A stretch of 25,802 bases of DNA from a virus (Duplodnaviria > Caudoviricetes): positions 1 to 25,802 of the IMG/VR virus record IMGVR_UViG_3300031455_000006; one strand, written 5' to 3'. Shown here piece after piece: positions 1 to 25,706 of this stretch. Position 1 is the first letter of the stretch. Each line of letters opens with the position of its first letter. The translations under genes were made by a program, and so were the position numbers. A model generated the notes under the pieces. It saw only the letters and a program-made list of their open reading frames with translations, did no database searches and was not told the origin of the DNA.

Positions 1-147
1 TAACTCAATCAATTTCATTTTTTTTTCTGTCAATTTATATCTTTCGTGCATTTAATTCACTTCCTTTCATTATGAGGGTAGTTAAAAAAATATAGGAGTA
101 GTTATTTTGAAAATTCTGGGAAGGGTATAAATATTTATAGATTTATT
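1..147. repeat. Terminal direct repeat, copy 1 (circular contig overlap)
   Basis: Identical to 25656-25802 except T at 21 vs G at 25676; contains the 5' end and upstream region of terS. Confidence 0.95.
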
Positions 148-951: not shown

Positions 952-992
952 AAAAAAGAACACCTTTAACCATCTCTGGCGGTGTCCTTTTT
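952..992 (-). terminator. Probable intrinsic terminator after the Zn-ribbon gene
   Basis: Minus strand AAAAGGACACC...GGTGTTCTTTT stem followed by a U run. Confidence 0.55.
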
Positions 993-4048: not shown

Positions 4049-4177
4049 TTTAACCATCCTTTTTATTTGAAGCACACACATTCCGTATATGGTGCTTGTT
4101 TCTTATTTCCAATACCTAGACCTTATAAATCACTAAAACCTCTTAAATGGAGTTTGTGAGCGTTTTATGAGGAGTAA

Positions 4178-7305: not shown

Positions 7306-7317
7306 TTAAATCTCCTC

Positions 7318-9184: not shown

Positions 9185-9537
9185 AATCATCGTCCTCCAC
9201 CCTTTAAGTATTCTTAAATAGTCTCTCTTTGGGGGAACGGTTTGAGCCAGGCTGTTTTTATTGATGCATATGGATTCTTCGTATTCTAGTGTGAGTACCC
9301 TTTTACCATTCTTTTTAGAAACATGATTCGTATTTTAAATGGTATTCGTAAGATGTAAATAAATGCCCATATATTTAGTATTTATTTAAGAATCCTGTTT
9401 AGAACACTTGTGGACAGGCAGATATCCAGCCAATTTTATTGTGTTTTAAAGAGGTTTTTAACTTCCTTTAAAGATCTGGAAACGTCCTAGGAAGTTTAAA
9501 ATAATCACACTCAAACTAAGACAGGAAGTGTTCAAGA

Positions 9538-9667: not shown

Positions 9668-10522
9668 TCAAACACCAGCTTCGTACATTTCTTCAAATAA
9701 CCATTCATGATAATCTGCTTCAATTATATTTTTGCAAATAGCCGTATAGTAGGCTTCAACATTGCGTATCTTGCGCCCTGCCTTCATATTTCTTATGAGT
9801 TGATAAAAGCTGCGTTCAGCCAGTGAAACCTTATCAGCGGACTTATAGTGAGTCAGATGGTGAGTGTTGATTGTTACCACTCTCCACAGGGATTCAATTT
9901 GTTTATAGCCATTATTGAGCATTTTAGCCAAGTTTTTAAATGTAGTTGGGACTTTATTGGATGTTAATTCATGTGATTGAAAAGATTCATGTGATTCATG
10001 CGACAAGTCCTTATAACGTTTATTTATATTTTTGTTGTAAGTTTTATATATTACATCAGTTTTTCGGGGTGTCATCGTCTCAATTTCAGAACCTTGATCT
10101 GGTGCTGTTTGAGGCTCTGTATGATCGTTGGCGCGGGTGTCATTTGAAGATGAAATAGAAGTCCCAGAATTTATAAAACGCTGAATTACGTAAACGTTGG
10201 ACGATTGAGAGCCATTAGCGCGTTCGGTTGAGTGAATTTCAAGTATGCCAAACTTAACAGCCTTCCGTTTAAATCGGTGAAAGGTTGCTTCGGAGAGTTT
10301 GATTTTTTTATTTTGGAGAGATTTCAATAAGGTACGGATGGAAGCGTTAGATACCCCTATCGTTACACAGGAGTAGCGTAGAAGTTCTTTGAAGATATGG
10401 AGTTCGCCAGTTGTCAAATCGCTCTTGTGACAACTGAGGAATGATTCCATATTATTGTTAAGGTCTTTAATAGAAGAAAAATTCGATAAGTAATTAAATG
10501 ATTGAATGTTTGATTGTTTCAT
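9668..10522 (-). CDS. HTH-domain putative replication initiator
   Basis: Likely start MKQS at 10522 (GGGGG SD); winged HTH SEATFHRFKRKAVKFGILE..NGSQSSNVY; low-complexity linker; C-terminal IRNVEAYY. Confidence 0.65.
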   Translation of the reverse strand: MKQSNIQSFNYLSNFSSIKDLNNNMESFLSCHKSDLTTGELHIFKELLRYSCVTIGVSNASIRTLLKSLQNKKIKLSEATFHRFKRKAVKFGILEIHSTERANGSQSSNVYVIQRFINSGTSISSSNDTRANDHTEPQTAPDQGSEIETMTPRKTDVIYKTYNKNINKRYKDLSHESHESFQSHELTSNKVPTTFKNLAKMLNNGYKQIESLWRVVTINTHHLTHYKSADKVSLAERSFYQLIRNMKAGRKIRNVEAYYTAICKNIIEADYHEWLFEEMYEAGV

Positions 10523-10581
10523 GATTAATGCCCCCAATTTTTTAATTTAATTTTGGGCATACTCAAATAAGCCATTAGGAC

Positions 10582-10783: not shown

Positions 10784-11818
10784 TTAATCATCTCTCCCCA
10801 TATTGCGTTTTCTTTTACGCTTCTCTTTTTGTTCTATCAAATTTAAAGGTGAATACTGTCCGTGTTGAGAGACTATAGTTGTGTCTAACACATGTGCGTA
10901 TCTTAGGGTAACGGTTAAATCAGAGTGTCCAAGGATCTGCTGAAGCACTCTCATAGAGCCACCTTGTCGCAAGAACATTTCACTAGCAGTGTGTCGGAAT
11001 AAATGTGGTGGAACTCTTCTTTTAATTCCTGCTCGATCCACCATTTGCGCCAAGTGCTTTCTGAAAGGCGTTGAGGTCAAAGGTTTTCCATGATTAGTTA
11101 AAAAAATATAATCTGATTTTATCTCCTCGTTTTCTTCCATCATTTCTGTGAGAAGTTTTATTGTTTTTTTCGTAACAGGAACAATCCTAGCTTTTTTATT
11201 CTTTGTATTTTGGAACGTTACTGAAAAATTCTCATGGTTTATATCTGTTTTTTTTAGCGACAAAACCTCTGTGATCCGCCCGAATGAATCTAATAAAGTG
11301 TTTAAAATTACATACTCACGAAATTCAGAATACATTTCCTTGTTCAATTCATTTAGAATTTTATTTATTTCGTAAACAGTAAGCGTTTCAATCCGCTTTT
11401 GTTGTTCTTTAATTGGAGCGATTGCCAAGAAAATATTTTTATCAACAATTTTTTCTTCACACAAGATTGTAAAAATCGCTTTGGCGTACATCAAATAGGT
11501 GTTCACTCCACTTGGAGACAAGCCTATTTTTTTCACTTTATATGTCGGTTGATTTAAGAATTGTTTTTTTTCGTGTAATTGCCAATAAATGAAATCTCTA
11601 GCATCTTGAATTGACAACTTTGTAATATCCGCTTTTTCACCATAAAACCGATCAAAGTCATTGAACACTTTTTCATAATTGGCGATTGTGTTTATTGCCA
11701 ACCCCTGCATCTTTTTTATCTTAATAACAAATTCCCTTGCAACGTCTATTGTGATAATTTTTTCTTCATTTTTTTTTGTATAACGTTTTGTTTTTTTATT
11801 TACTGGATTATTAGACAA
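10784..11818 (-). CDS. int: Tyrosine recombinase/integrase
   Basis: Catalytic R (SFGRITE), K (TKNKK), HLFRH, LGHSD, Y (LRYAH); likely TTG start at 11818 with GGAGG SD (ORF extends to 11836). Confidence 0.93.
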   Translation of the reverse strand: MSNNPVNKKTKRYTKKNEEKIITIDVAREFVIKIKKMQGLAINTIANYEKVFNDFDRFYGEKADITKLSIQDARDFIYWQLHEKKQFLNQPTYKVKKIGLSPSGVNTYLMYAKAIFTILCEEKIVDKNIFLAIAPIKEQQKRIETLTVYEINKILNELNKEMYSEFREYVILNTLLDSFGRITEVLSLKKTDINHENFSVTFQNTKNKKARIVPVTKKTIKLLTEMMEENEEIKSDYIFLTNHGKPLTSTPFRKHLAQMVDRAGIKRRVPPHLFRHTASEMFLRQGGSMRVLQQILGHSDLTVTLRYAHVLDTTIVSQHGQYSPLNLIEQKEKRKRKRNMGRDD

Positions 11819-11819
11819 G

Positions 11820-11864
11820 AAAAAACCTCCCTTCATGTTTTAAAAGACAACATGAAAAGAGGTT
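11820..11864 (-). terminator. Hairpin/terminator overlapping the integrase SD
   Basis: 16-bp stem (2 GU pairs) AACCTCTTTTCATGTT/AACATGAAGGGAGGTT followed by Us. Confidence 0.6.
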
Positions 11865-11946: not shown

Positions 11947-12021
11947 TTAGGTTAAGCGAGTAACATCGCGTGCGATCATTACTTCTTCATCAGTTGGAAT
12001 AACAACTACTTTTACAGGTGA
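11947..12021 (-). other. attP core: replacement 3' end of acetate kinase (ackA)
   Basis: Minus strand reads SPVKVVVIPTDEEVMIARDVTRLT*, the conserved AckA C-terminus (IPTDEE.MIA); no start codon; sits between TMP and int. Confidence 0.9.
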
Positions 12022-12096
12022 GATTTAACCATATATTATCAATACGTTTCATGTTGTTTAATATAATTCTATCATTTTGGACTTCATTATGCAAAC

Positions 12097-12135
12097 AAAA
12101 AAAAGCTACCCTATAATTATAATTATAGGGTAGCT
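12097..12135 (-). terminator. Terminator after the tape measure gene
   Basis: Perfect 32-bp palindrome at 12104-12135 followed by a U run on minus. Confidence 0.8.
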
Positions 12136-12153
12136 CAGGACATCAATTTTCCA

Positions 12154-14706
12154 TTATCCTCCTCTTTTCTTAAGTCCTGACAATTGAACACCTGCTACGT
12201 AATTGGCAATTTTCTTCATTTGTCGGCCATCCATGTTTCCAGCGACATTAAAATTAAAAGTATTTTCAACAGTGATAGGTTTCCCACCTGTAGGAAGAGC
12301 CGACATATTAGAGAAAATTTTATCTCCAATTGTGCTTAGAACAGATTTAGTGAGAGGGATAATTGCCTCTGCACCTGCCTCTCCTACGCCCTGCATTCCT
12401 GCATTGGCTGTGTTAAAGATAGTCGGCTTACTGAAAATACCTCCTAATGCATTCCAATTAACCGCTATTTTCGGAACGCTTGGAGGATTTAAAGAAAATT
12501 TACCTGATAACGAAAACTTTGGAAGTTTTGGCATAGAAATTTTAGGAATTGATAATTTCATTCCAGTGAAAAATCCTTTGATGGTATCAACGAGTCTGCT
12601 AACTGTATTTTTTGCTGATTCGATCGGACTTGTGATTGCTGTTTTTACATTATTCCAAATATTGTAAGTTGTATTTTTAATGGAATTGAATGCATTAGAC
12701 AGATTATTTTTCATGTTATCAAATCTTGATTTTGCAATATCAACCGTTCCGCTAACAGCATTTGTGATGGCACTTTTTATTCCATTAAAAATGTTAGAGG
12801 CTGTATTTTTCATGTTATTAAAGATCGTTGATACGTTGTTTTTGAAATTATCAAATCTTGTACGCGCTGTATCAACTGCGCTGGAAACAGCATTTGTGAT
12901 GGTATTTTTTACGTTATTCCAAATATTTGAAGCTGTGTTTTTAATGTTATTTAAAGCTGTCGAAACGTTGTCTTTCATGTTATTGAATCTTGTCCGTACC
13001 TCAGTAACAATATTCGAGATTGTTGTTTTTAAATATGTAGAAATAGTATTCCATATCGAAGCGATTAAACCTCTTGCCGCATCCATATGATTGCGAATAG
13101 AATCGGTTATTGATTGAAATTTTGATGTTACATATGTGACGATGAAACTCAAAACTGTGTTGAAGATATTTTTTATTTCAGTGAATTTAGTCGTGATGTA
13201 AGTTGCCACAAAAGCAAAAACTTCAACTGCTTTCGCTCTGATAAAATCCCAACTTTTACCAACAAAAGCTACAACTTCGTCCCAATTTGCCCACAGAGCA
13301 ACACCTATCGCAATTAATGCCGCGATAGCCGCGATAACAATCCAAACTGGTGCGGTGATTGCTCCTATCGCTGTGACTAATATTCCAAAGCCCGCAACAA
13401 TAGCTGGTAAAAAGCCGATTATAGTTCCAAATACTACCAAAAGAGGTCCGATTACTATGATCAATCCTGTGATGATTGCGACCACTCTATGTATACTTGG
13501 ATCTAACTCACCAAACCAAGTCGCTAATTCAGCTATTTTTTCAATCCATGGGGTTATCATATCGATAACATCCATTAAAATAGGAAGGAAAGCGTCACCT
13601 AATGTGAGCGCAATGTCTTTAATTTTATTCCACATGATTGTTAATTGTGAGCTGACCGTTGCATATTTTTGTTCGGCTTCAGTTTGGAGCGCTGTATTTT
13701 CGTTCCACGCATCTGTTCCTATTTTCAAAGCATCCGTCAAAGTACCGCTACCAGATGCCATGGTTTTTAATACTTCAGAAACTTGTAAGCCACTGAATCC
13801 CATTTCATCTAAAATAGGATTAATATTTTCCCCTTCACCTTGCATTTTTCCTAGACCACTGATAAACATCTCCAATGCTCCACCTGCATCCTGTTCAAAT
13901 GCGGTAGAAAATTCGCTTGCGGAAACGCCTGCTACACTAGCAAATTGTTCTAAGCCTTTACCTCCATTTGCAACAGAATTTGTCATTTCGGTGATGACGC
14001 GCGACATTGACCCTCCACCACGTTCTGCTGAAATTCCCATTGAAGACATGGCGGCTGATACTGACATAATTTGAGCTTGGCTCATTCCTGCTTGTGTTGC
14101 AGATCCTGCCAAATAACCAGCCATATTAACAATTTGTGATTCTGTTGTTGCGGTGTTGTTACCTAATGCAACGATTGTACTTCCAAGCCGATCAAAGTTT
14201 TCTTGTGGCATGTTGGTTGCATTCGCAAATTGAGCAAGTGCCATGCTGGCTTCATCTGCTGTCATGTTGGTTGCCACACCCAAATCAACCATTGTACGAG
14301 TAAAACCAAGTATGTTTTCTTTCTCAATTCCAAGTTGTCCCGCATTTTCGGCTACTTTTGCTATCTCGATAGCAGAAACTGGGATCTCCTTACTCATATC
14401 TCTGATGCCTTGTTTTAAACCTGCGAACTCGTCTTCTGTTGCGTCCACCGTTTTACGAACACCAGCGAAGGCTGATTCAAAATCAATTGCCGTCTTAATT
14501 GCAAACGTAGCAATACCAGCCAATGGTAGAGATACGCTTTTAGTAAGGGCGCTACCAACATTCTTCATTCCCTGACTGAGATTTTTCGTTTTCGTTTCAA
14601 AATTCTTTGAAAATTCATCAGTTTTCTTTCCAGCGTCACCCATTGCTTTTGTAAACTCGTCAGTTTTCGCAAGTATCCTTGCTACTAAACTGTATTCCTG
14701 TGACAT
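12154..14706 (-). CDS. Tail tape measure protein (TP901-family core)
   Basis: FESAFAGVRKTVD; DRLGSTIVALGNN; central hydrophobic stretch; 11/22-periodic F/W repeats; C-terminal GGIFSKPT..GEAGAEAIIPL. Confidence 0.95.
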   Translation of the reverse strand: MSQEYSLVARILAKTDEFTKAMGDAGKKTDEFSKNFETKTKNLSQGMKNVGSALTKSVSLPLAGIATFAIKTAIDFESAFAGVRKTVDATEDEFAGLKQGIRDMSKEIPVSAIEIAKVAENAGQLGIEKENILGFTRTMVDLGVATNMTADEASMALAQFANATNMPQENFDRLGSTIVALGNNTATTESQIVNMAGYLAGSATQAGMSQAQIMSVSAAMSSMGISAERGGGSMSRVITEMTNSVANGGKGLEQFASVAGVSASEFSTAFEQDAGGALEMFISGLGKMQGEGENINPILDEMGFSGLQVSEVLKTMASGSGTLTDALKIGTDAWNENTALQTEAEQKYATVSSQLTIMWNKIKDIALTLGDAFLPILMDVIDMITPWIEKIAELATWFGELDPSIHRVVAIITGLIIVIGPLLVVFGTIIGFLPAIVAGFGILVTAIGAITAPVWIVIAAIAALIAIGVALWANWDEVVAFVGKSWDFIRAKAVEVFAFVATYITTKFTEIKNIFNTVLSFIVTYVTSKFQSITDSIRNHMDAARGLIASIWNTISTYLKTTISNIVTEVRTRFNNMKDNVSTALNNIKNTASNIWNNVKNTITNAVSSAVDTARTRFDNFKNNVSTIFNNMKNTASNIFNGIKSAITNAVSGTVDIAKSRFDNMKNNLSNAFNSIKNTTYNIWNNVKTAITSPIESAKNTVSRLVDTIKGFFTGMKLSIPKISMPKLPKFSLSGKFSLNPPSVPKIAVNWNALGGIFSKPTIFNTANAGMQGVGEAGAEAIIPLTKSVLSTIGDKIFSNMSALPTGGKPITVENTFNFNVAGNMDGRQMKKIANYVAGVQLSGLKKRGG

Positions 14707-14736
14707 TTATAAATCCCCTTTCAATTAAAAAAACAT

Positions 14737-14784
14737 AAAAAAAAGAGAGGAAAACCCTCACTCTCAAAGGTTTTCCTCTCTTTT
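14737..14784. terminator. Strong, possibly bidirectional terminator between chaperones and TMP
   Basis: AAAAGAGAGGAAAACC/GGTTTTCCTCTCTTTT stem with A/T runs on both sides. Confidence 0.75.
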
Positions 14785-14789
14785 AAAAG

Positions 14790-15098
14790 CTACATATTTT
14801 TAAGTTGTTCCTTAGCTTTTTTGATTGCTTCAAAATCTGTTTTCTTGTTGATCTTTGAAGGCTTATACACTTTTTCGGGCATTAAACCCTCCAAAAACTC
14901 CTTAATATCCTTTTGATCATAATTAGGAAGTAGACTAATTTGTGCTTTCATTAACCAGTCTTCACGTTGTGAATTTTGGATAACTTTCAACTGCAAGATA
15001 TGTTCGTCAAGATAAACATTGTCTAGGATAAATTCACGAGTCCAGCCGTATTCCTTCGCATATAAGTGTATTATGGAAATTATTTGCTTTTGGTACAA
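14790..15098 (-). CDS. Tail assembly chaperone C-terminal extension (gpT-like), reached by -1 frameshift
   Basis: Frame stays open up to the slippery site at 15167-15176; AKEYGWT..I motif; immediately before TMP. Confidence 0.8.
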   Translation of the reverse strand: MYQKQIISIIHLYAKEYGWTREFILDNVYLDEHILQLKVIQNSQREDWLMKAQISLLPNYDQKDIKEFLEGLMPEKVYKPSKINKKTDFEAIKKAKEQLKNM

Positions 15099-15145
15099 AG
15101 TAAAAAAGGATTCATTTGATTTTTCATCATCTGAACCCTTCTCGT

Positions 15146-15505
15146 TTATTGCCCCTTCAATCTCTTGAAAAAACCCATGATCACACTTAGGTTATTCACA
15201 CTCAAAACGGCTTCAGTTAGAGTGAAAAAGTCATCGATTCCACCGTCTAAAACTGTTTCAACATCAATATTTGCCGCCACTGCCAAAAATCTTGGTAGTG
15301 TGTCAGATGCTTCCATTAAGATTTCTGGGACTTTATCAATAATCGTTTCTGTATTGACTTCCGTATTGCCATCTTGCATAAATAATTCTTTAAACACTTT
15401 TGGAAGATTATTCAAAGTTGAAGCAACTGCCCCCATGTTACGGATAGCAATTTTCTTGATTTCAAATTCTTCACCATTAAATTGAATTTTCACGCTGTCC
15501 TGCAT
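15146..15505 (-). CDS. Tail assembly chaperone (gpG-like)
   Basis: Lies between tail tube and TMP; ends with G GGT TTT TTC slippery sequence. Confidence 0.8.
   Translation of the reverse strand: MQDSVKIQFNGEEFEIKKIAIRNMGAVASTLNNLPKVFKELFMQDGNTEVNTETIIDKVPEILMEASDTLPRFLAVAANIDVETVLDGGIDDFFTLTEAVLSVNNLSVIMGFFKRLKGQ
15167..15176 (-). other. Programmed -1 ribosomal frameshift site
   Basis: GGGTTTTTTC (X XXY YYZ); -1 frame reads QEIEGAINEKGSDDEKSNESFFTLYQKQ into the downstream ORF. Confidence 0.85.
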
Positions 15506-16020
15506 TATTCTGCACCCTCTTCATTACCGATACGGAAGAAATTCCCACCAGTTTTATAATTACCAGTTTTCGGTAATGCTCTGAACTCAACTTCATATGT
15601 ATTCACGTCTTTACCATACGCACGAGTAAATCCACCTGTCGGTAAAGCCTTGAAAATTGTAATGTCATAGTCTGTTGTTCCACCAGCGTCCCGTGGACAT
15701 ACTTGGATCTCAACAGCTTTATCCCGCATACGTTGGTGGGTAGCACCATCAGTTAATCCAACTGTGCTTGCACCGTCTTTAATTTCTTGTAATGCAGGTA
15801 GTGCCATTTTTAATTTTTCAAATGACTCGTCCTGTAAAACTACTTTTAAAGTTACATTCCAAGAATCCAAGTAGTAGTCATATACTCCTAGTTCATACGT
15901 TTCGATCTCCAACATCACAGGTTCAGCCATAAATTCTGCCGAATCTCCTTGTAAACCGATGTCTTTACCATCAATTTTGATGTCTGCTAAACCAAATCCG
16001 ATTTTAATATCTTCTGCCAT
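15505..16020 (-). CDS. Major tail (tube) protein
   Basis: Position after tail terminator and before chaperones; beta-rich ~171 aa; start 16020 or 16032. Confidence 0.75.
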   Translation of the reverse strand: MAEDIKIGFGLADIKIDGKDIGLQGDSAEFMAEPVMLEIETYELGVYDYYLDSWNVTLKVVLQDESFEKLKMALPALQEIKDGASTVGLTDGATHQRMRDKAVEIQVCPRDAGGTTDYDITIFKALPTGGFTRAYGKDVNTYEVEFRALPKTGNYKTGGNFFRIGNEEGAE

Positions 16021-16051
16021 TTTGCATTTCACTTACTTTCTTATTTTTATT

Positions 16052-16432
16052 TTATTTTTTTGTCATGAAGACAAGTTCAACTGTGAACTCTTCTCTATCG
16101 TTGTTATCTCTATATAAATAACTCACATCTGTTCGAGCGAACGAATGCAGAACATACAAATCATCTAATTGATAATTCTCTTTTGAATGGAATAAATCCA
16201 TAATTTCATTGCCCAATTTATCTCCATCTAACCAAGTTAAAGTTCTGAATTTAATTTCAATAACTTTCTCTCTTATTGGTGTATATAAGCTAGGAGGATA
16301 GCCACCCAAATCAACCACACTTACAATTTCATCTGGATTATCTGGATAAAAATTAATGAATAAATTCTCTCCAAAAGTTAAATCATTTTCTTTAATTTCT
16401 TGTTCTAAATAATCAACAATTTTTTTAAGCAT
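16052..16432 (-). CDS. Tail terminator / minor capsid 3-like protein
   Basis: GENLFINFYPDNPD...YLYRDNNDREEFTVEL pattern; position in the connector block. Confidence 0.7.
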   Translation of the reverse strand: MLKKIVDYLEQEIKENDLTFGENLFINFYPDNPDEIVSVVDLGGYPPSLYTPIREKVIEIKFRTLTWLDGDKLGNEIMDLFHSKENYQLDDLYVLHSFARTDVSYLYRDNNDREEFTVELVFMTKK

Positions 16433-16927
16433 TTACAAAACCTCTTCCCAATCACCAATGAAGAAATAAGATTGAGTATCGCCAAGTTGAGTAGGTTTTC
16501 CGATGAAAGTAATTTCAAATTTATCTGATTCTTTTTTAAAGGTTCTTGTAAACCCTGTTTCTGGGGAAACAAAAGCACTCCAAATACACAAATCAAATTC
16601 TTTTGAATCGCCCGCATCATATGGATGAATAATTAATCTTTTTCCTGTTGTGTCAACGTTTGAAGCTTCATCGTACAAGCCATGTTCATGCTGTTTAAGA
16701 GTTGGAGAAATGATCTTTAAAGTTTCATAAGAAACACTATCAATGACAACTGTGAAGGCAACTTGATACTCCTCAAGGATAAACTTTTTTACAGTGTTTC
16801 CAGTCCCACCATATAAAGGCATATATTTAGGAACTGCTGAAAATACTGCTTCATCTGCCATGCTTGGAAGTTTTTTACCATCATATGTGATCTCACATAA
16901 ACCAAAAGGGATATTTAATTCGTTCAT
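16433..16927 (-). CDS. Second tail-tube-like protein (paralog of 15505-16020)
   Basis: Aligns end to end by eye with the major tail protein (FGL..I..DGK, P.DAG, GFTR, F.IG). Confidence 0.7.
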   Translation of the reverse strand: MNELNIPFGLCEITYDGKKLPSMADEAVFSAVPKYMPLYGGTGNTVKKFILEEYQVAFTVVIDSVSYETLKIISPTLKQHEHGLYDEASNVDTTGKRLIIHPYDAGDSKEFDLCIWSAFVSPETGFTRTFKKESDKFEITFIGKPTQLGDTQSYFFIGDWEEVL

Positions 16928-17322
16928 TGTCCTAACCCCTTTTTCATCGCTTCACCGATGTGTTTAGTGTATTTTCCTCTATACTGTGTCATAGGTTGAC
17001 CTAGGAATTTCCTTCCAACTGTCATGCCATCAAATCCAGATTTCTTTTGAGATGTTTCACCTAGTTTGTAGAAAGATTCATGACGAATTAACGTATATTT
17101 TTTCTTATATCCGACCTTCGCAACTATTTGACTTCCTTCTTTTTTGGCTGGCTCTACCGTTCCAGATTCCATTAAGCCACCCTCTTTTAAAGGTGCTAAT
17201 CGTTGTGAGGCTGACAGAAGATCTTCAGCGACTTCATTGATAGCTTTTTCAATGCTTTTAATAGTGCTTTCTTCGATCCTTTTCAATTCTTTAGAGAAAA
17301 GGTTTATATCCATTTGTTTCAT
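16924..17322 (-). CDS. HK97 gp10-like neck / tail-completion protein
   Basis: LAPLKEGGLMESG...VGY..Y..IRHE...GRKFL motif. Confidence 0.75.
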   Translation of the reverse strand: MKQMDINLFSKELKRIEESTIKSIEKAINEVAEDLLSASQRLAPLKEGGLMESGTVEPAKKEGSQIVAKVGYKKKYTLIRHESFYKLGETSQKKSGFDGMTVGRKFLGQPMTQYRGKYTKHIGEAMKKGLGQ

Positions 17323-17612
17323 ACGAATATCACCTTTTTCACAATTTCACCTATGGAATTTCTAGTGATTTTCATAGAAATAATCGTAAATTCCTTACCT
17401 TCAAATTCAAATTTATCATCAACATTAACAACGGTTGTGGCAGAAAGAATAACTTCTAACTGTGACACCGTTTCAATATTAGTTTGATTTTTTACAAGTT
17501 GGATTTTCTCTTTTACCCTACACTTTTCAAAGCGTTCATTCTTTTTAATCGGCTTCCCATAACCATCACGACCAATTTCATAAATCGTACAATCCTGATA
17601 AAGAGTGATCAT
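17319..17612 (-). CDS. Head-closure (stopper) protein
   Basis: 97 aa, RDGYGKP..CRV; beta-rich; second gene of the connector block. Confidence 0.65.
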   Translation of the reverse strand: MITLYQDCTIYEIGRDGYGKPIKKNERFEKCRVKEKIQLVKNQTNIETVSQLEVILSATTVVNVDDKFEFEGKEFTIISMKITRNSIGEIVKKVIFV

Positions 17613-17977
17613 GTGATTTTGCCAACTTTTTTATAAATGTGCTTCTTTAAAAATACTTTTGTAACAGGGGAAATAATTGAATGTGTCATTGTAAAAGACA
17701 TATCCTCAACCTTATAAGAAACAACACCCTCACGCTGAAGTCTTGAGCGCTCTTTATCGAAGGTTAGAAGAAAAATGGCTTGCTCATATATGGCATGGAG
17801 ATAAATAAGTTCACCTTTTACACCATTTCTCAAATCAAAGGAGTTATTAATATACATTTCTGCTTTTTTAAGCAACGCCTTTTTTTCTTCATAGCTCAAA
17901 TAAGGGGAAATCCACTCATCTTTTTCTTGGTGATTTTGAAAGTAGGAATCGGAATCGCATACATTAAATTCAATCAT
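17609..17977 (-). CDS. Head-tail adaptor protein
   Basis: ALLKKAEMYIN..AIYEQAIFL..GVVSYKVEDMS; follows the capsid gene. Confidence 0.65.
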   Translation of the reverse strand: MIEFNVCDSDSYFQNHQEKDEWISPYLSYEEKKALLKKAEMYINNSFDLRNGVKGELIYLHAIYEQAIFLLTFDKERSRLQREGVVSYKVEDMSFTMTHSIISPVTKVFLKKHIYKKVGKIT

Positions 17978-18173
17978 TTTTCTTCACCTTCTTAGGTGTG
18001 TTTTTTTTAGTTGTTTTTTTAACTGCTGGTTTTTCTTCTTCAACTTTAGGAATTTTTTCATCTGTAAATAGAGAAAAACCTTCTCTATCTTTATATAAAA
18101 TTTCCCAAGCTGAAAGAGTAACTTCAATAATCTTATTCGCATTATTGATAATTTTAATTTTTTCACTTTTCAT
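17970..18173 (-). CDS. Small hypothetical protein with a Lys-rich tail
   Basis: ATG at 18173 with GGAGG SD; typical small gene after a capsid gene. Confidence 0.65.
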   Translation of the reverse strand: MKSEKIKIINNANKIIEVTLSAWEILYKDREGFSLFTDEKIPKVEEEKPAVKKTTKKNTPKKVKKND

Positions 18174-18192
18174 ATTTGATACCTCCAAATTT

Positions 18193-18225
18193 AATAAAAA
18201 GGGGAGATAAAATCCCCTTTTTATT
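18193..18225 (-). terminator. Terminator after the capsid gene
   Basis: AATAAAAAGGGGA/TCCCCTTTTTATT. Confidence 0.7.
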
Positions 18226-19054
18226 AACCTTCTTGATTATCTTTTTTAAGAGAAGCAAAAGCATCTGGCTTAGTCACAACATGTGCAAAGTGACCAATTA
18301 CACGTAGTGCTACCATATCTCGTTCCGCAAGATTTACACCGTTTACTGTAGCTTCTTCAAGTAGCTTATATTCAATTTCACCTTTGATTCCTACCACAGA
18401 ACGGCTCCAGTCACCCAAAATTGCTGTTGTATTAGCATCTACACCGAATGAATATTCCACTGGTTGACCATAAAGCTGATCAGAAACTTCACTTGTAATA
18501 GCTGGCACATAAAGTGGATTCCCTTGTGCGTCTTTCAATTTACGCAGACGGTTTTTCGTAGCGAAACCAGTTACGAATCCATTTACATTGTGACCATGAG
18601 CTTCAGCCATTGCCATTGCATCAGACAAATCTTCATCAAGTGATTGACCTGCTGTTGTTCCTTCTACTACCGTTTGTCCTGCCACTGCTGTAGCAATTTT
18701 TGCTAATGCTCTTTGATCAAAAAGCCGTGCAAACTGTTCGTTGATATCGTCTTTGATTTCTTCAAACACATCAACCAATGACTCATTTACTAACTCGCTT
18801 GAGAAGGGAACGATGATTGCGAATTTTTCTGTTTTCAATGTAATAGGCTCGAATTTCGCTTCTGTGCTACCGATTTTTTCACCTTCACCAATTACAAACG
18901 CTTGAGTTCCAAGAAGTACAGGGATAACTTTTTCACCTGTTTTCATTGGTTCGATTTTCGACAACTGCATAATTGTAGATCCGTTTTGGACGCCTTTTAC
19001 AACTTCTTGTGATAATTCTTTACTAAGTACGCCTTGATTATTTTCCTTTAACAT
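18224..19054 (-). CDS. Major capsid protein (HK97 fold)
   Basis: VIGEGEKI..F..ITLKTEKFAIIVPFSSELV; LRKLKDAQGNPLY; LYGQPV; GDWS; NLAERDMVALR; PDAFA. Confidence 0.92.
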   Translation of the reverse strand: MLKENNQGVLSKELSQEVVKGVQNGSTIMQLSKIEPMKTGEKVIPVLLGTQAFVIGEGEKIGSTEAKFEPITLKTEKFAIIVPFSSELVNESLVDVFEEIKDDINEQFARLFDQRALAKIATAVAGQTVVEGTTAGQSLDEDLSDAMAMAEAHGHNVNGFVTGFATKNRLRKLKDAQGNPLYVPAITSEVSDQLYGQPVEYSFGVDANTTAILGDWSRSVVGIKGEIEYKLLEEATVNGVNLAERDMVALRVIGHFAHVVTKPDAFASLKKDNQEG

Positions 19055-19155
19055 TTAAAAATCTCTCTTTTCTATTTTTTTATTTTTTAAAACGCAAAAT
19101 AAGCACCAATAAAAATTGGTCGCCTTAACACTTATTGATTTTTTAATCAGAACGA

Positions 19156-19773
19156 TTAAAATTTTCTACCTAACTTCTTAATGAAGCTAGTATTATCTTG
19201 TTGCTCTTGCTCTAGTGGATTTCCGCCACTATTGCCAAAATCTTGTACTTGCTTTACTTCAAACAAACCTTTATTCAAAGCGCTTTCAATCCATTGTAAC
19301 TTAGATAAATCTGAACCCTCGGGGACTAAATCTCTAAATTGTTCAGGGACAGAATTTAATTTTATTTCAAAAATCTGATTGAATGCTTCTTTGTATTGTT
19401 GAAGCTCTTCATTATCTGAAACAGTTTCTTTTGAATCATTAGTTAAATGAGTTTTTTCAATTTCTTCATTCGTTTCATTAACTTCAACTACTTCTACTCC
19501 AGGCTTAGGCTCTGCTTGGCTATGATTTAAATTATCTTTTATTCCATCCAATTCAGCCTTAACCGCTTCATACTTGTCATTGATGTCTTTGAATCGCTTA
19601 TAAGGAACTGGTTTTTCCTCTGCTTCTTCTTCTTCAACTTCTTCTGTTTCATCTTCTTCAACTTCTACTGTCGAATCTTCTATTTTTACATCTTTGTTTG
19701 ATGAGTCTTCTTCGACTGCTTCAGTTTCTTCTGTTTCTTCAACTGTTTCTAACTCTTTTTCTTTATCTTCCAT
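19156..19773 (-). CDS. Capsid scaffold protein
   Basis: Very acidic, VPYKRFKDIN motif, coiled coil, directly before the capsid gene; no protease gene seen. Confidence 0.75.
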   Translation of the reverse strand: MEDKEKELETVEETEETEAVEEDSSNKDVKIEDSTVEVEEDETEEVEEEEAEEKPVPYKRFKDINDKYEAVKAELDGIKDNLNHSQAEPKPGVEVVEVNETNEEIEKTHLTNDSKETVSDNEELQQYKEAFNQIFEIKLNSVPEQFRDLVPEGSDLSKLQWIESALNKGLFEVKQVQDFGNSGGNPLEQEQQDNTSFIKKLGRKF

Positions 19774-19813
19774 TTAAAATCAATCCTCTCAACATTTTTT
19801 TACGTGATCTAGT

Positions 19814-20776
19814 TCACGGCTTGGATTTTTTTCTCATGTCATAATCTAATTTATTTAATTCTTTCAAGCTGATATTTTGATACTTTTTATCAACCTTATT
19901 TCCTTCACCACGGAATGAGGAAATATAAACTAGGAATATATGCTTACAATTCGGATGCAACGTGTTATAAGGTCTATTCGGCAAAGTCTCAATAGAAGGA
20001 TATTTGTCACTTTGACCGCTTACAGAAAATACCATATCCTCATAGAAAAAACACCAATCAGATGAATTGTGATTTGAAATTTGAATAAGGTCAAAACTCT
20101 TATCATATTCAGCGCTATTTACTTGATACTCTCTTAGCCTGTTTATAGTTCCTTCATTATGTAATATTCTACTTTTTGTCCGAATCACCATATCAACATA
20201 TTTATCAATCTGCCACTTCTTTTTTCCTGCATCAATGAAAGCTGGAACACCTTGGATCAATAGTTTTTCTTTTAATTGTCGCTTAATAACGTCATAACTT
20301 TCACCAGATTGAATCATTGCTGTAATAAGTTCTTTAGCATTTTCACGAATGATCCTTTTGGCTTGCTGTTCCATGAAAGTAGTGCGCTTTGCCAAATCTG
20401 AGTATAAATCAGAAATCGCTTTTTCTAGCGCTTTCTTATGTACTACACCTGAACCTTTGACGATTTCAAGATTAACAACTAAATCATCAACATTTTTCAA
20501 AGAAGAAAAATAAAATGAGGGGAAAATGTTTTCAGCATAATCCTTTGTTTGAGTTTTTAAATCCTCAAGAATATCGCTAATTTCCTTCATAATTCCTTGC
20601 GACTGCTGAACACTCAAATCCTTATCAATCTGTTTTTCTAATAACTTCAAAATCGATGCATAAGCCGTGACATAAATAAAAATTAACTTCTTTGATTCAT
20701 CATCAAGGTTCTCAATTTTAATATCTTCATCTTCAAACTCATTTAAAAATTCTTCATACTCTTCATTAAACTCCAT
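19814..20776 (-). CDS. Minor capsid / head morphogenesis protein
   Basis: FIDAGKKKW..Y..M..RT; C-terminal LHPNCKH; lies between portal and scaffold. Confidence 0.8.
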   Translation of the reverse strand: MEFNEEYEEFLNEFEDEDIKIENLDDESKKLIFIYVTAYASILKLLEKQIDKDLSVQQSQGIMKEISDILEDLKTQTKDYAENIFPSFYFSSLKNVDDLVVNLEIVKGSGVVHKKALEKAISDLYSDLAKRTTFMEQQAKRIIRENAKELITAMIQSGESYDVIKRQLKEKLLIQGVPAFIDAGKKKWQIDKYVDMVIRTKSRILHNEGTINRLREYQVNSAEYDKSFDLIQISNHNSSDWCFFYEDMVFSVSGQSDKYPSIETLPNRPYNTLHPNCKHIFLVYISSFRGEGNKVDKKYQNISLKELNKLDYDMRKKSKP

Positions 20777-20782
20777 TATTCA

Positions 20783-22078
20783 TTACTCCATGAAAGAGAG
20801 CCTTGAACGCTCATTTTCTTCATTGATAATTTCAAGAAATTCATCTTCAATTTCTTTTGCTGAATAATGAGGATTTAAACGAGCAATCGAAGCTTTAATC
20901 GAGGTATTACCTGCAACAATCTTTAATTGTTCTTCTTGTGCTTGAGTATATGAATCAGTAGGCATTGAAGCCGATAATTCTACAGTTGGTAAGGTTGGTG
21001 TATATTTTCCGTTCCCTGCTAAAACATCTAAATGCTGTGCTTGTAATAAGATTTTTTTTATTCCATGCTCAAAATATTTAAGCGAATTGTCTATAACCGA
21101 ACTAGTACGGAATGCTTTTAACTTAATTGATAAGGCTGAACTATTTGCAGATTCTTTTGTTAAGCCATAAAGATTGGCATTCAATGGTGAAAGATAGTGG
21201 ATAGCTTTCATGATAATTGAATCCATATACTCAAAATTAGCTTTTAATTGCGATTCCCACGTTAAATATTTAGGTTCGATTTCTCCATCTTCAACAGGGA
21301 TGTATAAACCATTTTCACCTTTTTGAAATTTATAATCACTGTCCAATAAACTCATTGAACCGATGATATTAGGGTCGCTATGCTTATCAAGAATTTTACT
21401 AATTTGTGAAACTCTCCAATTGTATTCTTGTAACAATGGTTCTAAGCCAAAATACAAACTATAACCATGAAAATCTCCGTTATTGCGCGCAAATGGGATG
21501 TAAGTAAGCGGTGATTCAGTTAAATATGTATTTACTTCATTGTATTCGGATTCAATCTCTGCACCGACTTCATTATTGTTGTAGACATTTTTCTTACTAA
21601 TGCACCAATAATAACCGTCACGCTTTTCATAGGTTTCACTGTATAAGTACGTTTCATTTCCCTCTTGTACAGGAAAAGCAATTGTTTCTCTTAAAATCTT
21701 TCTCTGATTTCTAGGGTCAAGTTCGGGGAAATAATAATCTGGCTGAATAAAGCTGATTTTACTTTTTCCTCCATCAATGTAGTTCTTAAAAATGACTCCA
21801 CCTTTGACCGCACATGTTATGGAAGCTTCTGAAAGAATGGAATTAAATTCATTTTCAAAGATTAATCTATCTAGCGCTGAATTAACTTCTTCATTATTTT
21901 TTACGCTTGCTGTAATATCATCTTTAAAACTTAGATCACGAAATAATTTTGCCATTTCCATTCCAAGTGCAATTGGAATATATTTTCCTGTTGGCTTCTT
22001 GAACTGTGGCTTATTTCTATATATATCCCAATTCTTCTGGAAACGTCTATGACGCTTGTCATTAAAATTAATTAACAA
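20783..22078 (-). CDS. Portal protein (SPP1 gp6-like)
   Basis: 431 aa after terL; ILDKHSDP, YLTWE, SALSIK features; GGAGG SD. Confidence 0.82.
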   Translation of the reverse strand: MLINFNDKRHRRFQKNWDIYRNKPQFKKPTGKYIPIALGMEMAKLFRDLSFKDDITASVKNNEEVNSALDRLIFENEFNSILSEASITCAVKGGVIFKNYIDGGKSKISFIQPDYYFPELDPRNQRKILRETIAFPVQEGNETYLYSETYEKRDGYYWCISKKNVYNNNEVGAEIESEYNEVNTYLTESPLTYIPFARNNGDFHGYSLYFGLEPLLQEYNWRVSQISKILDKHSDPNIIGSMSLLDSDYKFQKGENGLYIPVEDGEIEPKYLTWESQLKANFEYMDSIIMKAIHYLSPLNANLYGLTKESANSSALSIKLKAFRTSSVIDNSLKYFEHGIKKILLQAQHLDVLAGNGKYTPTLPTVELSASMPTDSYTQAQEEQLKIVAGNTSIKASIARLNPHYSAKEIEDEFLEIINEENERSRLSFME

Positions 22079-22110
22079 TCTTTTTCCTCCTTTTCTTCAA
22101 AATAAAAAAC

Positions 22111-23718
22111 CTATAACCATGATGGCTTAGGTTTTACTGTTTTTGGTTTCTTTACTTTTTCTATTTGCTCCCAAGCACCTGCCAATGAGTCTGGGGCATC
22201 ATCATGCTTGGCATTTGGATTCCAATCTTTCACTTGTGAATTGTATTCTTGATTATCTCGGTTGAACTTAATGACACCATTTACAATATCGGGTTGAAGT
22301 TGCATGATACGAACCTCTTTTTTCGTTCGTGGTTTGATCGGTTTTATACGAATGTGAAAGATACCTTCATCTTTTAATCTTTTCTTCAAATCATTTAAAA
22401 GCATCTCTTGAAAAAGAACACTTTCAACACAAATTAAATCAAGATAATCCTCATACTGCTTCACTTTTTCAACAATCAAATCAATCAATTTATCTGGTGT
22501 AATACGCTTGATAGTTCCATCAATGACATATTTGTAATTGGTGATTTTGTGCTTGCCAAGAATTGTGATTGCTGAAAAATCACCTTTTTTCTTACCCATT
22601 TTCTTACCCATTGCAGGATCAATAAACATAACATTGTGGCAAGTATTTAAATCTGGCAACTTGTCAAAGTATTGAATTACATTGAAAACATAATCCTCTG
22701 CACCTCTTGGTTGACATTGCATTTCCTTGTAGAAGGAAGATTCACCATCATCAACAAGTTTTTTCATTAAGAAGTAGTAATCAAATTTCTCTTGCCATAA
22801 TACACGAACACCCTTCAACATCTCTTCTTGATTAATAAGATAAAATTGATAAGCGTTCTCTTCACGCTCTTTATCTTCTAATGAAGTATAGATTTTTCTC
22901 CATTCTGCCCAAAGGTCTGAACGTTCTGCCCATTCCATAACAGACTGAAAGAATAATTGTTTATATCCTGTTGTATTCGGTGAAAGTAATTCAGAAAGAA
23001 TATCTTCATTATGTAATACCGTTCCTACTACAAGTGTTCTGGTATTCTCATCACCTGCATTTAACAATGAATCCTTATATGTATTAGCAAGTTTTTCTCT
23101 CGCTGAATCTGATTCTGCAACATCGTCTTTAATTAAATCATCACACAAGATTAAAGAAGGTCGATTTTCTTTGTACCTAACTCCACGAATTGAACCCTCA
23201 ATTCCACGAATCATCATTGAAGTATCATTCGTCAACCAGATTTCATCAAATGCCCATTTTTGAGATGATTTCAACTTACCAAAATCCTCAATAACCGCAT
23301 CGTTTGAAGTAATTTCCTCTTTGATCATCGCTAAGAAGGGAACTGCTGTATCTTGTGTGGCTGAAACTAATAAGATGAATTGCAATTTCTTATATAGTAA
23401 GATGTGTACCGGAAATAGAAAGCTTGATAAGGTTGATTTTCCGTTAGCTCTGGGAACTCCGACAACCATTCTTTTTCCTTCATTATTAATAAGCCAATCA
23501 AGTTCATCCATTAATCGGTTATGAAATTGTGAAAATGGCTTGTTGAAGTATTTTGGAAAGTACGCCTGTGCAAAATAAGATATATCTATTTCGCTTAACA
23601 TTTTACGTAAGCCCTCTGATCCTGTGAGGGGATAGTTTAAAATTAATTCTTCAATTTCATTATCGTTGAAGTGTTTTTTTAAATAATTAAATAGTAATTC
23701 TGTTTCTTGCCTGTTCAA
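22111..23718 (-). CDS. terL: Terminase large subunit
   Basis: Walker A PRANGKST; Walker B LILCDD; VVGT coupling motif; nuclease DPA..DFSA..HDDAPD. Confidence 0.95.
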   Translation of the reverse strand: MNRQETELLFNYLKKHFNDNEIEELILNYPLTGSEGLRKMLSEIDISYFAQAYFPKYFNKPFSQFHNRLMDELDWLINNEGKRMVVGVPRANGKSTLSSFLFPVHILLYKKLQFILLVSATQDTAVPFLAMIKEEITSNDAVIEDFGKLKSSQKWAFDEIWLTNDTSMMIRGIEGSIRGVRYKENRPSLILCDDLIKDDVAESDSAREKLANTYKDSLLNAGDENTRTLVVGTVLHNEDILSELLSPNTTGYKQLFFQSVMEWAERSDLWAEWRKIYTSLEDKEREENAYQFYLINQEEMLKGVRVLWQEKFDYYFLMKKLVDDGESSFYKEMQCQPRGAEDYVFNVIQYFDKLPDLNTCHNVMFIDPAMGKKMGKKKGDFSAITILGKHKITNYKYVIDGTIKRITPDKLIDLIVEKVKQYEDYLDLICVESVLFQEMLLNDLKKRLKDEGIFHIRIKPIKPRTKKEVRIMQLQPDIVNGVIKFNRDNQEYNSQVKDWNPNAKHDDAPDSLAGAWEQIEKVKKPKTVKPKPSWL

Positions 23719-24543: not shown

Positions 24544-25104
24544 TTAATGTTCGGCTTCCTTTTTTCTCTTAGCACGAATCAATGTACTTTTCGAGATTCC
24601 AAGTGTAGACTCAACTTCTTTATAAGAATGAGAATCCAATAAGCTTAAAGCATGTTCTATCTGCTTTTTTGTAAATTTATTTGGTCTACCTTCTCTAAAA
24701 TCTTCACGCTGTTTAGCAATTGCCTTTCCTTCTTGCGTTCGCTCAACAATCATATCCCTTTCAAATTCAGCAAATGAACTCAGGATATTAAAGATTAATC
24801 TCCCTGTCGGAGTATTCTCTACTAACCCCATGTTCAACACATGAACTTTTACACCCTTTTCAAATAACATTTTAATTGTTTGAATACCGTCTACTGTTGA
24901 ACGAGCGAAACGATCTAACTTTGTTACAACTAAAGTATCACCTTGTTGAAGTTTATTAAGTAGTTCTTGAAATTGTGGTCTTTCTTTTTTCGTTCCAGTA
25001 AATTTCTCTTCAAAAATAATGCCACAATTCTCATTCTTTAACAATTGAATTTGTGATTGTAAATCTTGCCCAAAAGTAGAAACACGAGCATAACCATATT
25101 TCAT
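24544..25104 (-). CDS. Serine recombinase (resolvase/invertase family)
   Basis: [40 protein letters not shown]-terminal HTH; ATG at 25104 with GAGGTG SD. Confidence 0.95.
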
Positions 25105-25119
25105 GTGTAGCACCTCATT

Positions 25120-25274: not shown

Positions 25275-25706
25275 TCAATCTTGATTAGATTCTTTTTTCT
25301 TTTCCAGCATGTCAAGTAATGCATTCTTGCTCTCAGAATCATCTGTTTTAATTGTGACTTCTTGCTTAAATTGCGGGTCAAGTTCGGCATAAGTCAATAA
25401 CTTAGCAACTGCATTAACTTTTGCTGTTTCATTAGAACCGCTTTTAATAATCTTCATTAGTGAATCAATTAAGCCATTAATATCATTTTTAATTCTTCTC
25501 TTTGATTCATTAACTTTGAAATCAAGTGCTTCCTCATAAGCCTTTTGAAAAGCTCGCCCTTTTTTTCCTTCGCCCTGCATCCATGAATAATAAGTAACCC
25601 TACTAATTCCTACTTGTTCACAAGCATCTTTTATTGTGAGATTCCCTTCAACAAGTAACTCAATCAATTTCATTTGTTTTTCTGTCAATTTATATCTTTC
25701 GTGCAT
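25275..25706 (-). CDS. terS: Terminase small subunit-like HTH protein
   Basis: LTEKQMKLIELL..DACEQVGISRVTYYSW HTH followed by helices; upstream of terL. Confidence 0.7.
   Translation of the reverse strand: MHERYKLTEKQMKLIELLVEGNLTIKDACEQVGISRVTYYSWMQGEGKKGRAFQKAYEEALDFKVNESKRRIKNDINGLIDSLMKIIKSGSNETAKVNAVAKLLTYAELDPQFKQEVTIKTDDSESKNALLDMLEKKKESNQD

Follow-up and report, generated by a model that had tools for sequence, protein, structure and literature searches.

The window, the whole stretch of 25,802 nucleotides analysed here (IMG/VR record IMGVR_UViG_3300031455_000006), is a mobile element of soil bacilli with an intact head, neck, tube and ruler, and its tail tip and lysis functions probably come from a helper phage. 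The best explanation, which we hold at somewhat better than even, is a helper-dependent satellite that builds all of its particle except the tip and borrows the tip and lysis. We infer this from the conserved layout in which the tape measure protein (TMP) gene comes last, the age of that layout, ordinary prophages in which Dit follows TMP, the recurrence of the layout with other heads, the lack of tip genes elsewhere in the hosts, the affinities of Dit proteins carried by relatives, the profile of the TMP end and the precedent of the PLE satellites. Essential virion genes are missing as a conserved state, as in phage satellites in the broad sense. The original prediction had proposed such an intermediate strategy; the own head, tube and ruler and the missing tip and lysis genes were found as expected, while the dependence on a helper is still a deduction.

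The window is a single element with a unit length of 25,655 bp and an edge at the 3' end of ackA. Whether it is a real circle or a prophage closed by the assembler, the element is complete between its att ends. A direct repeat of 147 nt with one mismatch is found at its ends (1..147 and 25656-25802). In the separate Logan assembly of the sole run holding the window, which may be the sample it came from, a 17,765-nt contig spans 12106-25802 with 13,697 letters and, judged from its length, the remaining 4,068 letters run on into the window start, crossing the junction. The repeat and this contig agree with the earlier claim of a closed circle. The same run has an assembly branch at 11947 into other DNA, which indicates that an integrated form or an empty site is present alongside, and that the circle could have been made from a prophage by the assembler. 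No RNA runs holding the window are listed. The att region (11947..12024, lower edge 11947; this and all other genes and sites below are on the minus strand unless stated otherwise) consists of the last 25 codons of ackA (TIGR00016 positions 381-404 of 405). Together with a tyrosine integrase (10784..11836; PF00589, 3.5e-33) it shows, at the level of gene content, that the element integrates. A contig circularised across a missing tip-lysis block is extremely unlikely: the window consists of one metagenome contig with one holder run, in which three Logan contigs tile the stretch from TMP over att to the integrase, but these overlap across 9561-25802 without gap or joint, and complete chromosomes (L002-L004) hold the same layout. 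The Logan contigs leave 7137-9137 uncovered, which proves nothing.

Family matches and conservation show that the element encodes its own terminase, head, neck, tail terminator, tube, chaperones and TMP. The small terminase gene terS (25275..25706; phrog_2538, 2e-18) falls outside the span 11947..23718 originally marked out, which holds the other structural genes. The large terminase terL (22111..23718) has 72-81% identity in four relatives and at most about 35% in the listed cultured phages, and the same ceiling of about 35% applies to the tube against any listed phage. Major capsid, scaffold, minor capsid and SPP1-type portal genes follow at 18224..22078 (PF05065, PF06152, PF05133), the scaffold being assigned from position and conservation. 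The neck region (16924..18188; Pfam, PHROGs) encodes a tail completion protein (HK97 gp10-like), head-tail stopper and adaptor, and a 67-aa protein. The tail terminator (16052..16432; PF12691, 1.2e-17) is flanked by two tube genes, rather than the single one first reported: the major tail tube protein (15505..16020; phrog_2175, about 27-35% to PM1/TP-84-type tubes) and a second tube paralogue (16433..16927) with a tube fold and without the Dit galectin domain. The paralogue is the marker of a two-tube family and a candidate adaptor ring. Two tail assembly chaperone ORFs of 119 and 102 aa (14790..15505) are both conserved, the first matching phrog_1442 and the second assigned by position.

TMP (850 aa, 12154..14706; TIGR01760, 6e-61) is the last structural gene. 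Its C-terminal 160 aa have 54-63% identity in four relatives and 36% in a fifth. Directly 3' of it is an intrinsic terminator with a 15-pair hairpin (12103..12136), followed by the ackA codons and then the integrase; a hairpin and T run past TMP are also present in L001, L002, L009 and L060. All structural ORFs of the window are open and match the relatives in length. The predicted intact TMP with terminator and att immediately behind it, and the absence of decay in the structural genes, were thus both borne out.

Dit, Tal, RBP, holin and lysin were absent from the 32 ORFs searched with Pfam and PHROGs and the 18 searched with NCBIfam, and six-frame tblastn of the window with 31 Dit, Tal, RBP, holin and lysin proteins gave no match, in agreement with the original reading. 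The same PHROG library found Dit in 9/9 ordinary prophages. Among the ORFs of unclear role that were checked for likeness to tip proteins or lysins none qualified; the 421-aa and 359-aa products look like DNA-binding regulators (HTH/sigma-like). The window accordingly has the intact head, neck, tube, TMP, integrase and att of an autonomous temperate siphophage, and lacks its holin and endolysin as well as its Dit, Tal and RBP.

Related elements in several genera share the gap in tip and lysis genes, as judged from their gene content. Tal and lysin are missing from all five related full elements, which lie at five integration sites different from that of the window (0/6 with the window), so that relatives with Tal or lysin past TMP, which would have spoken against the prediction, were absent. 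The tail operon ends at TMP in six of seven two-tube members (the window, L001-L004 and the partial L009); in the seventh, G417, it ends at Dit, with TMP-Dit in normal order. All six full members keep the second tube paralogue. They occupy six att sites (ackA, yneF-like, spo0A, tRNA, comGC and glnA, five of the names read from ORF sequence), have three capsid families (phrog_10, 544, 212) and carry either a tyrosine or a serine integrase. The relatives measure 27-37 kb against 25.7 kb for the window. Synonymous sites of their tail genes are saturated, and the tail genes, TMP end included, are under purifying selection (pN 0.21-0.46 vs pS 0.61-0.92). The variety of att sites, capsids and integrases together with pN/pS shows, in these comparisons, that the state without tip and lysis genes is old, common to the relatives and under selection, and not one recent deletion; the seven members are kin and represent a single loss instead of seven. 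In ordinary controls Dit lies directly after TMP (7/7 single-tube relatives and 2/2 co-resident prophages). L006, an ordinary prophage, also stops after Dit.

The two-tube arrangement was not found in 50,697 phage records, and no close relative of terL turned up in plasmids or phages. The tube paralogue has 47 homologues, some on contigs of 29-41 kb and some in genomes of Oceanobacillus, Neobacillus, Schinkia and Bacillus SM2101. Scans of IMG/VR with the tube, a tube alignment and terL gave nothing; two scans with the tube paralogue gave two short fragments ending before TMP. No further two-tube members were found in the G001 family (44 genomes), a sample of the G002 family (301 genomes) or two small families.

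The TMP-last layout recurs with other head modules, which favours the original prediction. A Dit search of 401 genomes gave seven matches: G001, three SPbeta-like prophages with the order TMP-Dit-Tal, and three elements whose heads are different (terL 22-24%, or HK97-type). In each of these three a lone Dit precedes terS, TMP closes the series, Tal is absent and the ORF lists show a single tube gene. Besides the search centre, the 400 sampled Bacillales genomes contained four tip-less elements vs the three SPbeta-like prophages that the same Dit query gave. Five of the nine elements carry a lone Dit of their own, just upstream of terS in four of them. The predicted gap therefore narrows to Tal, RBP and lysin, the part that is constant, and does not take in the tip as a whole.

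Independent and recent loss of the tip and lysis block from prophages whose intact parents exist unsampled is improbable. Some members are damaged (split TMP in G002, split terL in G247, an IS21-type insertion in G003), and the holin of G003 is perhaps a leftover; the normal TMP-Dit order in G417, the truncation past Dit in L006 and the position of tube-paralogue homologues on 34-41-kb contigs also suit decay. The damage, the G003 holin, the L006 truncation and an M23 peptidase in G342 count against the satellite reading as well. However, all nine elements, at different sites, are without Tal, and eight stop exactly at the end of an intact TMP, often with a terminator, as does the partial L009. 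Their TMP ends are related to each other, two-tube phages are missing from the phage records, and random loss would not place Dit ahead of terS in each of three head lineages. It is very unlikely that the particle is autonomous, with a minimal tip in which the second tube paralogue or another ORF caps the tube and host lysis frees the particles. The constant presence of the paralogue in full two-tube members and the tube fold that it shares with the Dit N-domain fit such a cap, but it has no receptor-binding domain, no ORF of unclear role is common to all members, the two largest shared ones are regulator-like and the other-head elements show one tube gene.

The pointer to a helper comes from these relatives, the window itself being without Dit. 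Their Dit class is DUF6558. The G001 Dit has 57-65% identity to Dits of PBC2/Kirov/PJN02-type phages (140-170-kb Bacillus siphoviruses) and nests among them in the Dit tree (99/100); that of G417 lies within the SPbeta/Andregratiavirinae clade (100/99). The tree placed these two of the five Dits. On this basis large SPbeta/Andregratiavirinae-like siphoviruses are the most likely helpers, a tentative assignment that overall falls a little short of even.

With a profile built from the last 55 residues of TMP in the family, 5/5 large-phage TMP ends scored above their 20 shuffles, compared with 0/8 ordinary TMP ends. The signal in the large phages is weak (3.9-11.4 bits) and four of the five are close kin; a second set, three ends from SPbeta-like prophages, gave one borderline and two negative results. 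Two of the three other-head elements were positive (27.5 and 11.6 bits, 0/50 shuffles) and the third, G247, was negative. A library search with the profile gave 20 matches, none identifiable as a large-phage TMP end. For residues 1-106 of the last 159 TMP residues the best phage match was an ordinary Geobacillus phage (68%). Predicting the complex between SPbeta YomG 1-620 and the TMP end gave a score of 0.00, which favours neither side.

Location of the tip genes elsewhere in the host was not supported: the complete genomes G002 and G004 had no match to Dit or Tal, and G001, G417, G247, G342 and G173 none to Tal. An SPbeta-type Tal query, which had no positive control, matched 0/5 genomes, and no proposed helper was found in the examined hosts. 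The comparison with co-resident prophages that was originally suggested gave no shared TMP end: the two in G003 have other TMP ends and were rejected as helpers, which makes an incoming large phage the likely helper. An 810-890-aa gene of G002, G247 and G173, considered as an SPbeta YonO-like polymerase, had no SPbeta match.

A helper-dependent satellite of this kind would excise and replicate when the helper infects or is induced, and package its DNA in its own head. The TMP C-terminus would dock on the Tal-RBP tip of the helper, with Dit supplied by the helper, as for the window, or by the element, as in the five members that have one. Tail length is about 0.15 nm per TMP residue, and the tube would polymerise to the length set by its own ruler, about 130 nm vs about 460 nm for Kirov. 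The second tube paralogue could, speculatively, be a ring that fits the TP-84-type tube to a foreign Dit. Helper lysis genes would release the chimera, whose host range would be that of the helper, and drawing off tips would lower helper yield. An unlikely alternative use of the same parts is an anti-phage decoy, in which the tip parts of an invader are titrated or capped by tube, TMP and lone Dit, to the protection of the host; its spread, equally doubtful as part of the same reading, would be vertical or by an FtsK-relaxase module. A lone Dit away from the tail operon (four elements), nearly matching large phages, suits a dominant-negative role, and FtsK-relaxase modules are present in the window, G417, G342 and G247. 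On the other hand, terminase, portal and capsid, which a pure decoy would not need, are best conserved, as the terL values show, and the FtsK module was not found in the G001-G004 elements, yet these moved between att sites.

By analogy the tip-borrowing satellite would work like the chimeric tails of PLEs and like cf-PICIs, and it belongs to neither. According to the accessible text of PMC12987554, PLEs of Vibrio cholerae build chimeric tails with ICP1 and encode TMP and chaperone, as the element does; its own tail would likewise be chimeric. In some members of both one own tip-proximal part is similar to that of the helper, BhuB there and Dit here. PLEs differ in taking capsid, tube, sheath, baseplate and fibres from ICP1 (same text), whereas the element has its own terminase, head, neck and tube; they also occur in another phylum. 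The element has a non-contractile tail and relatives in Bacillales genomes, and the TMP and chaperone likeness is presumably analogous. The cf-PICIs, as far as described in the accessible parts of PMC10085698 and 10.1101/2025.02.11.637232, encode capsid, portal, terminase and head-tail joining proteins themselves, lack lysis genes and have their host range set by borrowed tail parts, as the element would. The window has the corresponding integrase, capsid, portal, terS/terL, head-tail adaptor and connector, but its 32 ORFs gave no match to the PICI-type AlpA regulator or primase. Unlike the element, with its 25.7 kb and full tube-TMP operon, cf-PICIs have a median of 14 kb and take whole tails from the helper, which join released tail-less capsids (PMC10085698, 10.1101/2025.02.11.637232, accessible parts). 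The SatelliteFinder model for cf-PICIs, as given there in PMC10085698, forbids tail genes, and the window has a tail terminator, two tubes, chaperones and TMP. EPIPs of Mycolicibacterium share integrase, head genes, TMP and the lack of a holin, but are reported without tail proteins in the accessible text of PMC12822802; the element encodes a terminator as well as two tubes and chaperones. TP-84/PM1-type siphophages and single-tube Bacillales prophages share the tube family phrog_2175 and the gene order from head to TMP, and differ in that the tube gene is single and Dit comes straight after TMP, mostly with Tal and lysis genes behind it. SPbeta-like/Andregratiavirinae phages (phi3T, Kirov, PBC2, PJN02) share the DUF6558 Dit of the relatives and a weak likeness in the last TMP residues. 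They are complete 125-170-kb phages, head, tube and TMP body of Kirov have no blastp match, and they are candidate helpers, not kin.

Titles and abstracts in the literature, with supplements and most subscription papers outside the scope, described no tip-less satellite with head, tube and TMP; the tmp-bearing cf-PICIs in Extended Data Fig. 10 of PMC12987554, a source available in part, may bear on this novelty. Such elements look like defective prophages and models forbid tail genes (PMC10085698, accessible text), so they would be missed. What known satellites borrow ranges from a whole virion over the entire tail in cf-PICIs to the larger part of a chimeric tail in PLEs, and the element, if the reading is true, would mark the far end of this range, with only tip and lysis borrowed. 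Conceivably, though as a whole at rather less than an even chance, it represents a widespread and unrecognised Bacillales satellite class, which arose three or more times from different head-tail modules and joins a short tube and ruler to the Tal-RBP tips of large SPbeta/Andregratiavirinae phages, with Dit re-captured by some members, the host range of the helper and depletion of its tips. They would possibly be the first satellites of SPbeta-type phages and lend themselves to a natural experiment on whether the TMP-Tal or the tube-Dit interface decides which tails are compatible. Hosts that are cultured, non-pathogenic and completely sequenced exist.

The other genes of the window include a NUMOD4-HNH endonuclease (339..911; PF07463, PF13392; phrog_59, 9e-59) and a small Zn-ribbon-like protein (992..1357) with homologues in the G002 and G003 elements. 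The 421-aa putative regulator (1391..2656) is 38-39% identical to homologues in G001 and G003, that of G001 directly preceding the lone Dit. The 359-aa protein (3002..4081), with a weak sigma-like lead, has 44-50% identity in G001 and G003, and a 402-aa protein of unknown role (5039..6247) without a family match is 29% identical to a G003 homologue; none of these three had a useful phage match. A 202-aa membrane-anchored cargo protein (4320..4928) gave a structure model (pLDDT 42) too poor for fold search. Plus-strand ORFs at 23982-24572 are low-complexity frames without family match. The module of FtsK/SpoIIIE, Replic_Relax and a membrane protein (6820..9190) is common in Bacillus prophages and resembles modules of G417, G342 and a G003 prophage. 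An HTH replication-initiator-like protein is encoded at 9668..10537 (phrog_1835, 1.6e-25; 49% in G004) and a serine resolvase/invertase at 24544..25113, near the position at which the relatives have a Xer-type recombinase.

The tip-less layout of the element is real and conserved. The terminal 147 bases of the 25,802-base record are repeated with one mismatch, which gives a unit of 25,655 bp. All 29 accepted genes are on the minus strand, and together they take up 85% of the window. Read from att, also on the minus strand, Pfam and PHROGs gave the order integrase, HTH replication protein, FtsK, Replic_Relax, membrane protein, six unknown or regulatory ORFs, HNH, terS, resolvase, terL, SPP1-type portal, minor capsid, scaffold, capsid, small protein, adaptor, stopper, tail completion, tube paralogue, terminator, tube, two chaperones and the tape measure gene (TMP). 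The set from head to TMP is complete and under selection. The TMP is followed, as originally noted, by a terminator and the att end: a terminator hairpin lies directly beyond it and then come the last 25 codons of ackA. The closed circle stood in part. The terminal repeat is present and the end-to-start junction is apparently crossed by Logan contigs of the only run holding window DNA, which may be its source; either an excised form or a prophage closed by the assembler could account for the circle, and the window is complete att to att in both cases. The contigs tile 9561-25802, the longest with 4 differences to the window, and branch into other DNA at 11947. Misassembly as the origin of the layout is hardly credible. 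Pfam and PHROGs revealed no repressor-like gene among the window ORFs, which would fit activation from outside.

The claim that head, tube and TMP occur without tip or lysis genes was upheld. Neither Dit, Tal, RBP, holin nor endolysin was found in the window by Pfam and PHROGs on 32 ORFs, by NCBIfam on 18 ORFs, or by tblastn with 31 Dit, Tal, RBP, holin and lysin proteins. The proposed check of the unknown ORFs for tip or lysin folds gave, for the 421- and 359-aa ORFs, a likeness to HTH/sigma-type proteins in the ESM Atlas instead, as leads only. A tail-tube fold is predicted for the 164-aa tube paralogue (pLDDT 72), with tube-fold chains giving both the best Foldseek E (1e-4) and the best Z (8.2), and its model has no domain beyond the tube fold. 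The model of the 202-aa ORF was too poor for use. It is improbable that the particle is autonomous and has a cryptic tip.

A search of GTDB genomes with the tube alignment gave six loci, two of them distant single-tube prophages and four close relatives, in Bacillus sp. FJAT-50079 (G001), Psychrobacillus L3 (G002), Salipaludibacillus HK11 (G003) and Jeotgalibacillus malaysiensis (G004). All four keep the terS-to-TMP order of the window and none has a Dit or Tal beyond the TMP. They extend over 27-32 kb in full; the att repeats measure 77 bp in G001, 93 bp in G002 and 69 bp in G003, and in G004 the comG operon is split. A fifth, more distant relative (G417; terL 40%) spans 36.7 kb and has a Dit directly after the TMP, followed by neither Tal nor lysin. 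The tail genes end at the TMP in the four and not in the fifth, and the possibility that relatives carry the missing genes after the TMP was not borne out for Tal or lysin in G417 or for Dit or Tal in the others. A partial metagenome member (L009) has a terminator-like hairpin after the TMP. The G003 element also carries a holin, and a frameshift, either genuine or due to a sequencing error, splits the G002 TMP. Att sites, types of integrase, capsid families and replication genes all vary from member to member. The major capsid has been swapped between families (phrog_544 in G002, L002:7063-7881, and G003, L003:6998-7801; phrog_212 in G417, L036:1344-2318; phrog_10 in the window), with portal, scaffold and neck still homologous. 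In the place of the window's serine resolvase, between terS and terL, relatives have a second, Xer-like recombinase (L001:468-1061, L002:901-1761, L004:11-853 and L036:7109-7690, in G001, G002, G004 and G417).

The controls comprised seven single-tube prophages whose tubes belong to the same family, together with the two ordinary G003 prophages. Dit lies directly 3' of the TMP in all nine and no tail ends at the TMP. Beyond Dit, a Tal-type gene was found within two genes in six, only fibre-type genes in two and nothing in one, so ordinary prophages can be truncated after Dit. One of the single-tube prophages (L006:14893-20525) ends at Dit, the following 4 kb having no long ORF, and has probably decayed. 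Repeated decay of prophages as the source of the tip-less elements is quite unlikely. Tail genes of the members compared with the window gave pN 0.21-0.46 and pS 0.61-0.92, and these sequences are read most simply as a single ancient loss, after which a tail without its own tip stayed under selection for a long time. Whole-genome searches found neither Dit nor Tal in G002 and G004, and in G001 and G417 only the Dit of the element itself. No PF06605 Tal was found in G001, G417, G247, G342 or G173, those of G001, G417, G342 and G173 being draft assemblies.

The G001 Dit (255 aa, phrog_33, DUF6558) is encoded upstream of terS, at a distance from the tail operon. Its best 25 phage records, whose Dits share 57-65% identity with it, are all 140-170-kb Bacillus siphoviruses, among them PBC2, Kirov and PJN02; identity to the G417 Dit is only 31%. 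In a tree of 16 sequences, with G001 and G417 as the element Dits, the G001 Dit is nested among the large Bacillus siphoviruses (99/100), and both form one clade with phi3T (100/99) that is separate from the ordinary Dits, TP-84-type ones included. The G001 Dit had seven matches in 401 genomes: G001 itself, three SPbeta-like prophages in which the order is TMP-Dit-Tal, and the elements of G247, G342 and G173, each with a lone Dit before terS. These lone Dits, outside the tree, are 29-36% identical to those of G001, G417 and Kirov. The three elements differ from the window in the head: terL is 22-24% identical to that of the window or, in G173, the head is HK97-type and the tube is a different one. 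In each of them the tail genes end with the TMP. Tal, RBP, holin and lysin queries had no match in them, G247 being scored as a stretch and not between located ends; its terL is split, and an M23 peptidase is encoded in G342 on the opposite strand. Across the window, the five relatives and these three, Tal, RBP and endolysin are absent in 9/9 element stretches, and a Dit of the large-phage class is present in five. The G173 element is at the end of spo0A, as is that of G002, and their integrases are 49% identical. An 810-890-aa protein (phrog_8308), whose only matches are three gut phage records, is common to G002, G247 and G173 (L011:5181-7610, L054:15819-18491 and L056:4203-6881).

Established siphophage structures place the C-terminal residues of the TMP inside the Tal hub. 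The last 55 residues of the family TMPs have a strand-helix-basic pattern in common, and their profile scored above own shuffles in 5/5 large-phage TMP ends and 0/8 ordinary ends, and well above shuffles in two of the three tip-less elements with other heads. On SPbeta-like prophage TMP ends it was negative in two of three and borderline in one. Among 1.8 billion proteins it gave 20 matches, mostly family-sized TMP ends and none an identifiable large-phage TMP. The TMP end therefore ties the tip-less elements together better than it identifies a helper. We infer that the element probably depends on a helper, which would trigger its excision; the element would package its own DNA, its TMP end would dock on the helper tip, the tube would polymerise to the length set by its own ruler, and helper lysis would release the particles. 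That the helpers are of the SPbeta/Andregratiavirinae type is possible, at somewhat less than even chances. A role as defensive decoy, compatible with the other readings, is unlikely.

PLEs contribute a TMP, a chaperone and in some cases a hub of their own to tails otherwise of ICP1 parts (PMC12987554), cf-PICIs make their heads and take tails whole (bioRxiv 10.1101/2025.02.11.637232; PMC10085698), and EPIPs have head genes and TMP without tail proteins (PMC12822802). The window element is similar in working to each but fails a defining feature of PLEs, of cf-PICIs and of EPIPs alike. Titles and opening parts of abstracts contained no report of this layout and, to that extent, a phage-satellite variant missing only tip and lysis is new.

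Cargo genes include MazF-like toxin-antitoxin genes in G004 (L013:4135-4593) and G417 (L036:11978-12718), a C5 DNA methylase in G003 (L012:10208-11578) and, after the TMP in the G002 element and still inside its att bounds, a gene which from its N-terminal sequence we take to be flagellin-like (L002:15068-16417). The 825-bp gap between terL and resolvase in the window (23719-24543) contains two hairpins (23755-23843 and 23852-23924) besides a long low-complexity stretch of TGTA/TGTGC, with a similar spurious ORF in the equivalent place in G003 (L003:1707-2144); it is possibly a packaging or replication site. The region of the 402-aa gene is flanked by an 84-bp repeat (4178-4261 and 6601-6684; 90%) and a 72-bp palindromic repeat (6270-6341 and 6702-6773; 90%), both candidate operator or recombination sites. 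Upstream of ftsK, 70 bp (9517-9586) recur with 2 differences in a contig of 32.6 kb from run X1, which may be a further mobile element of the same host.
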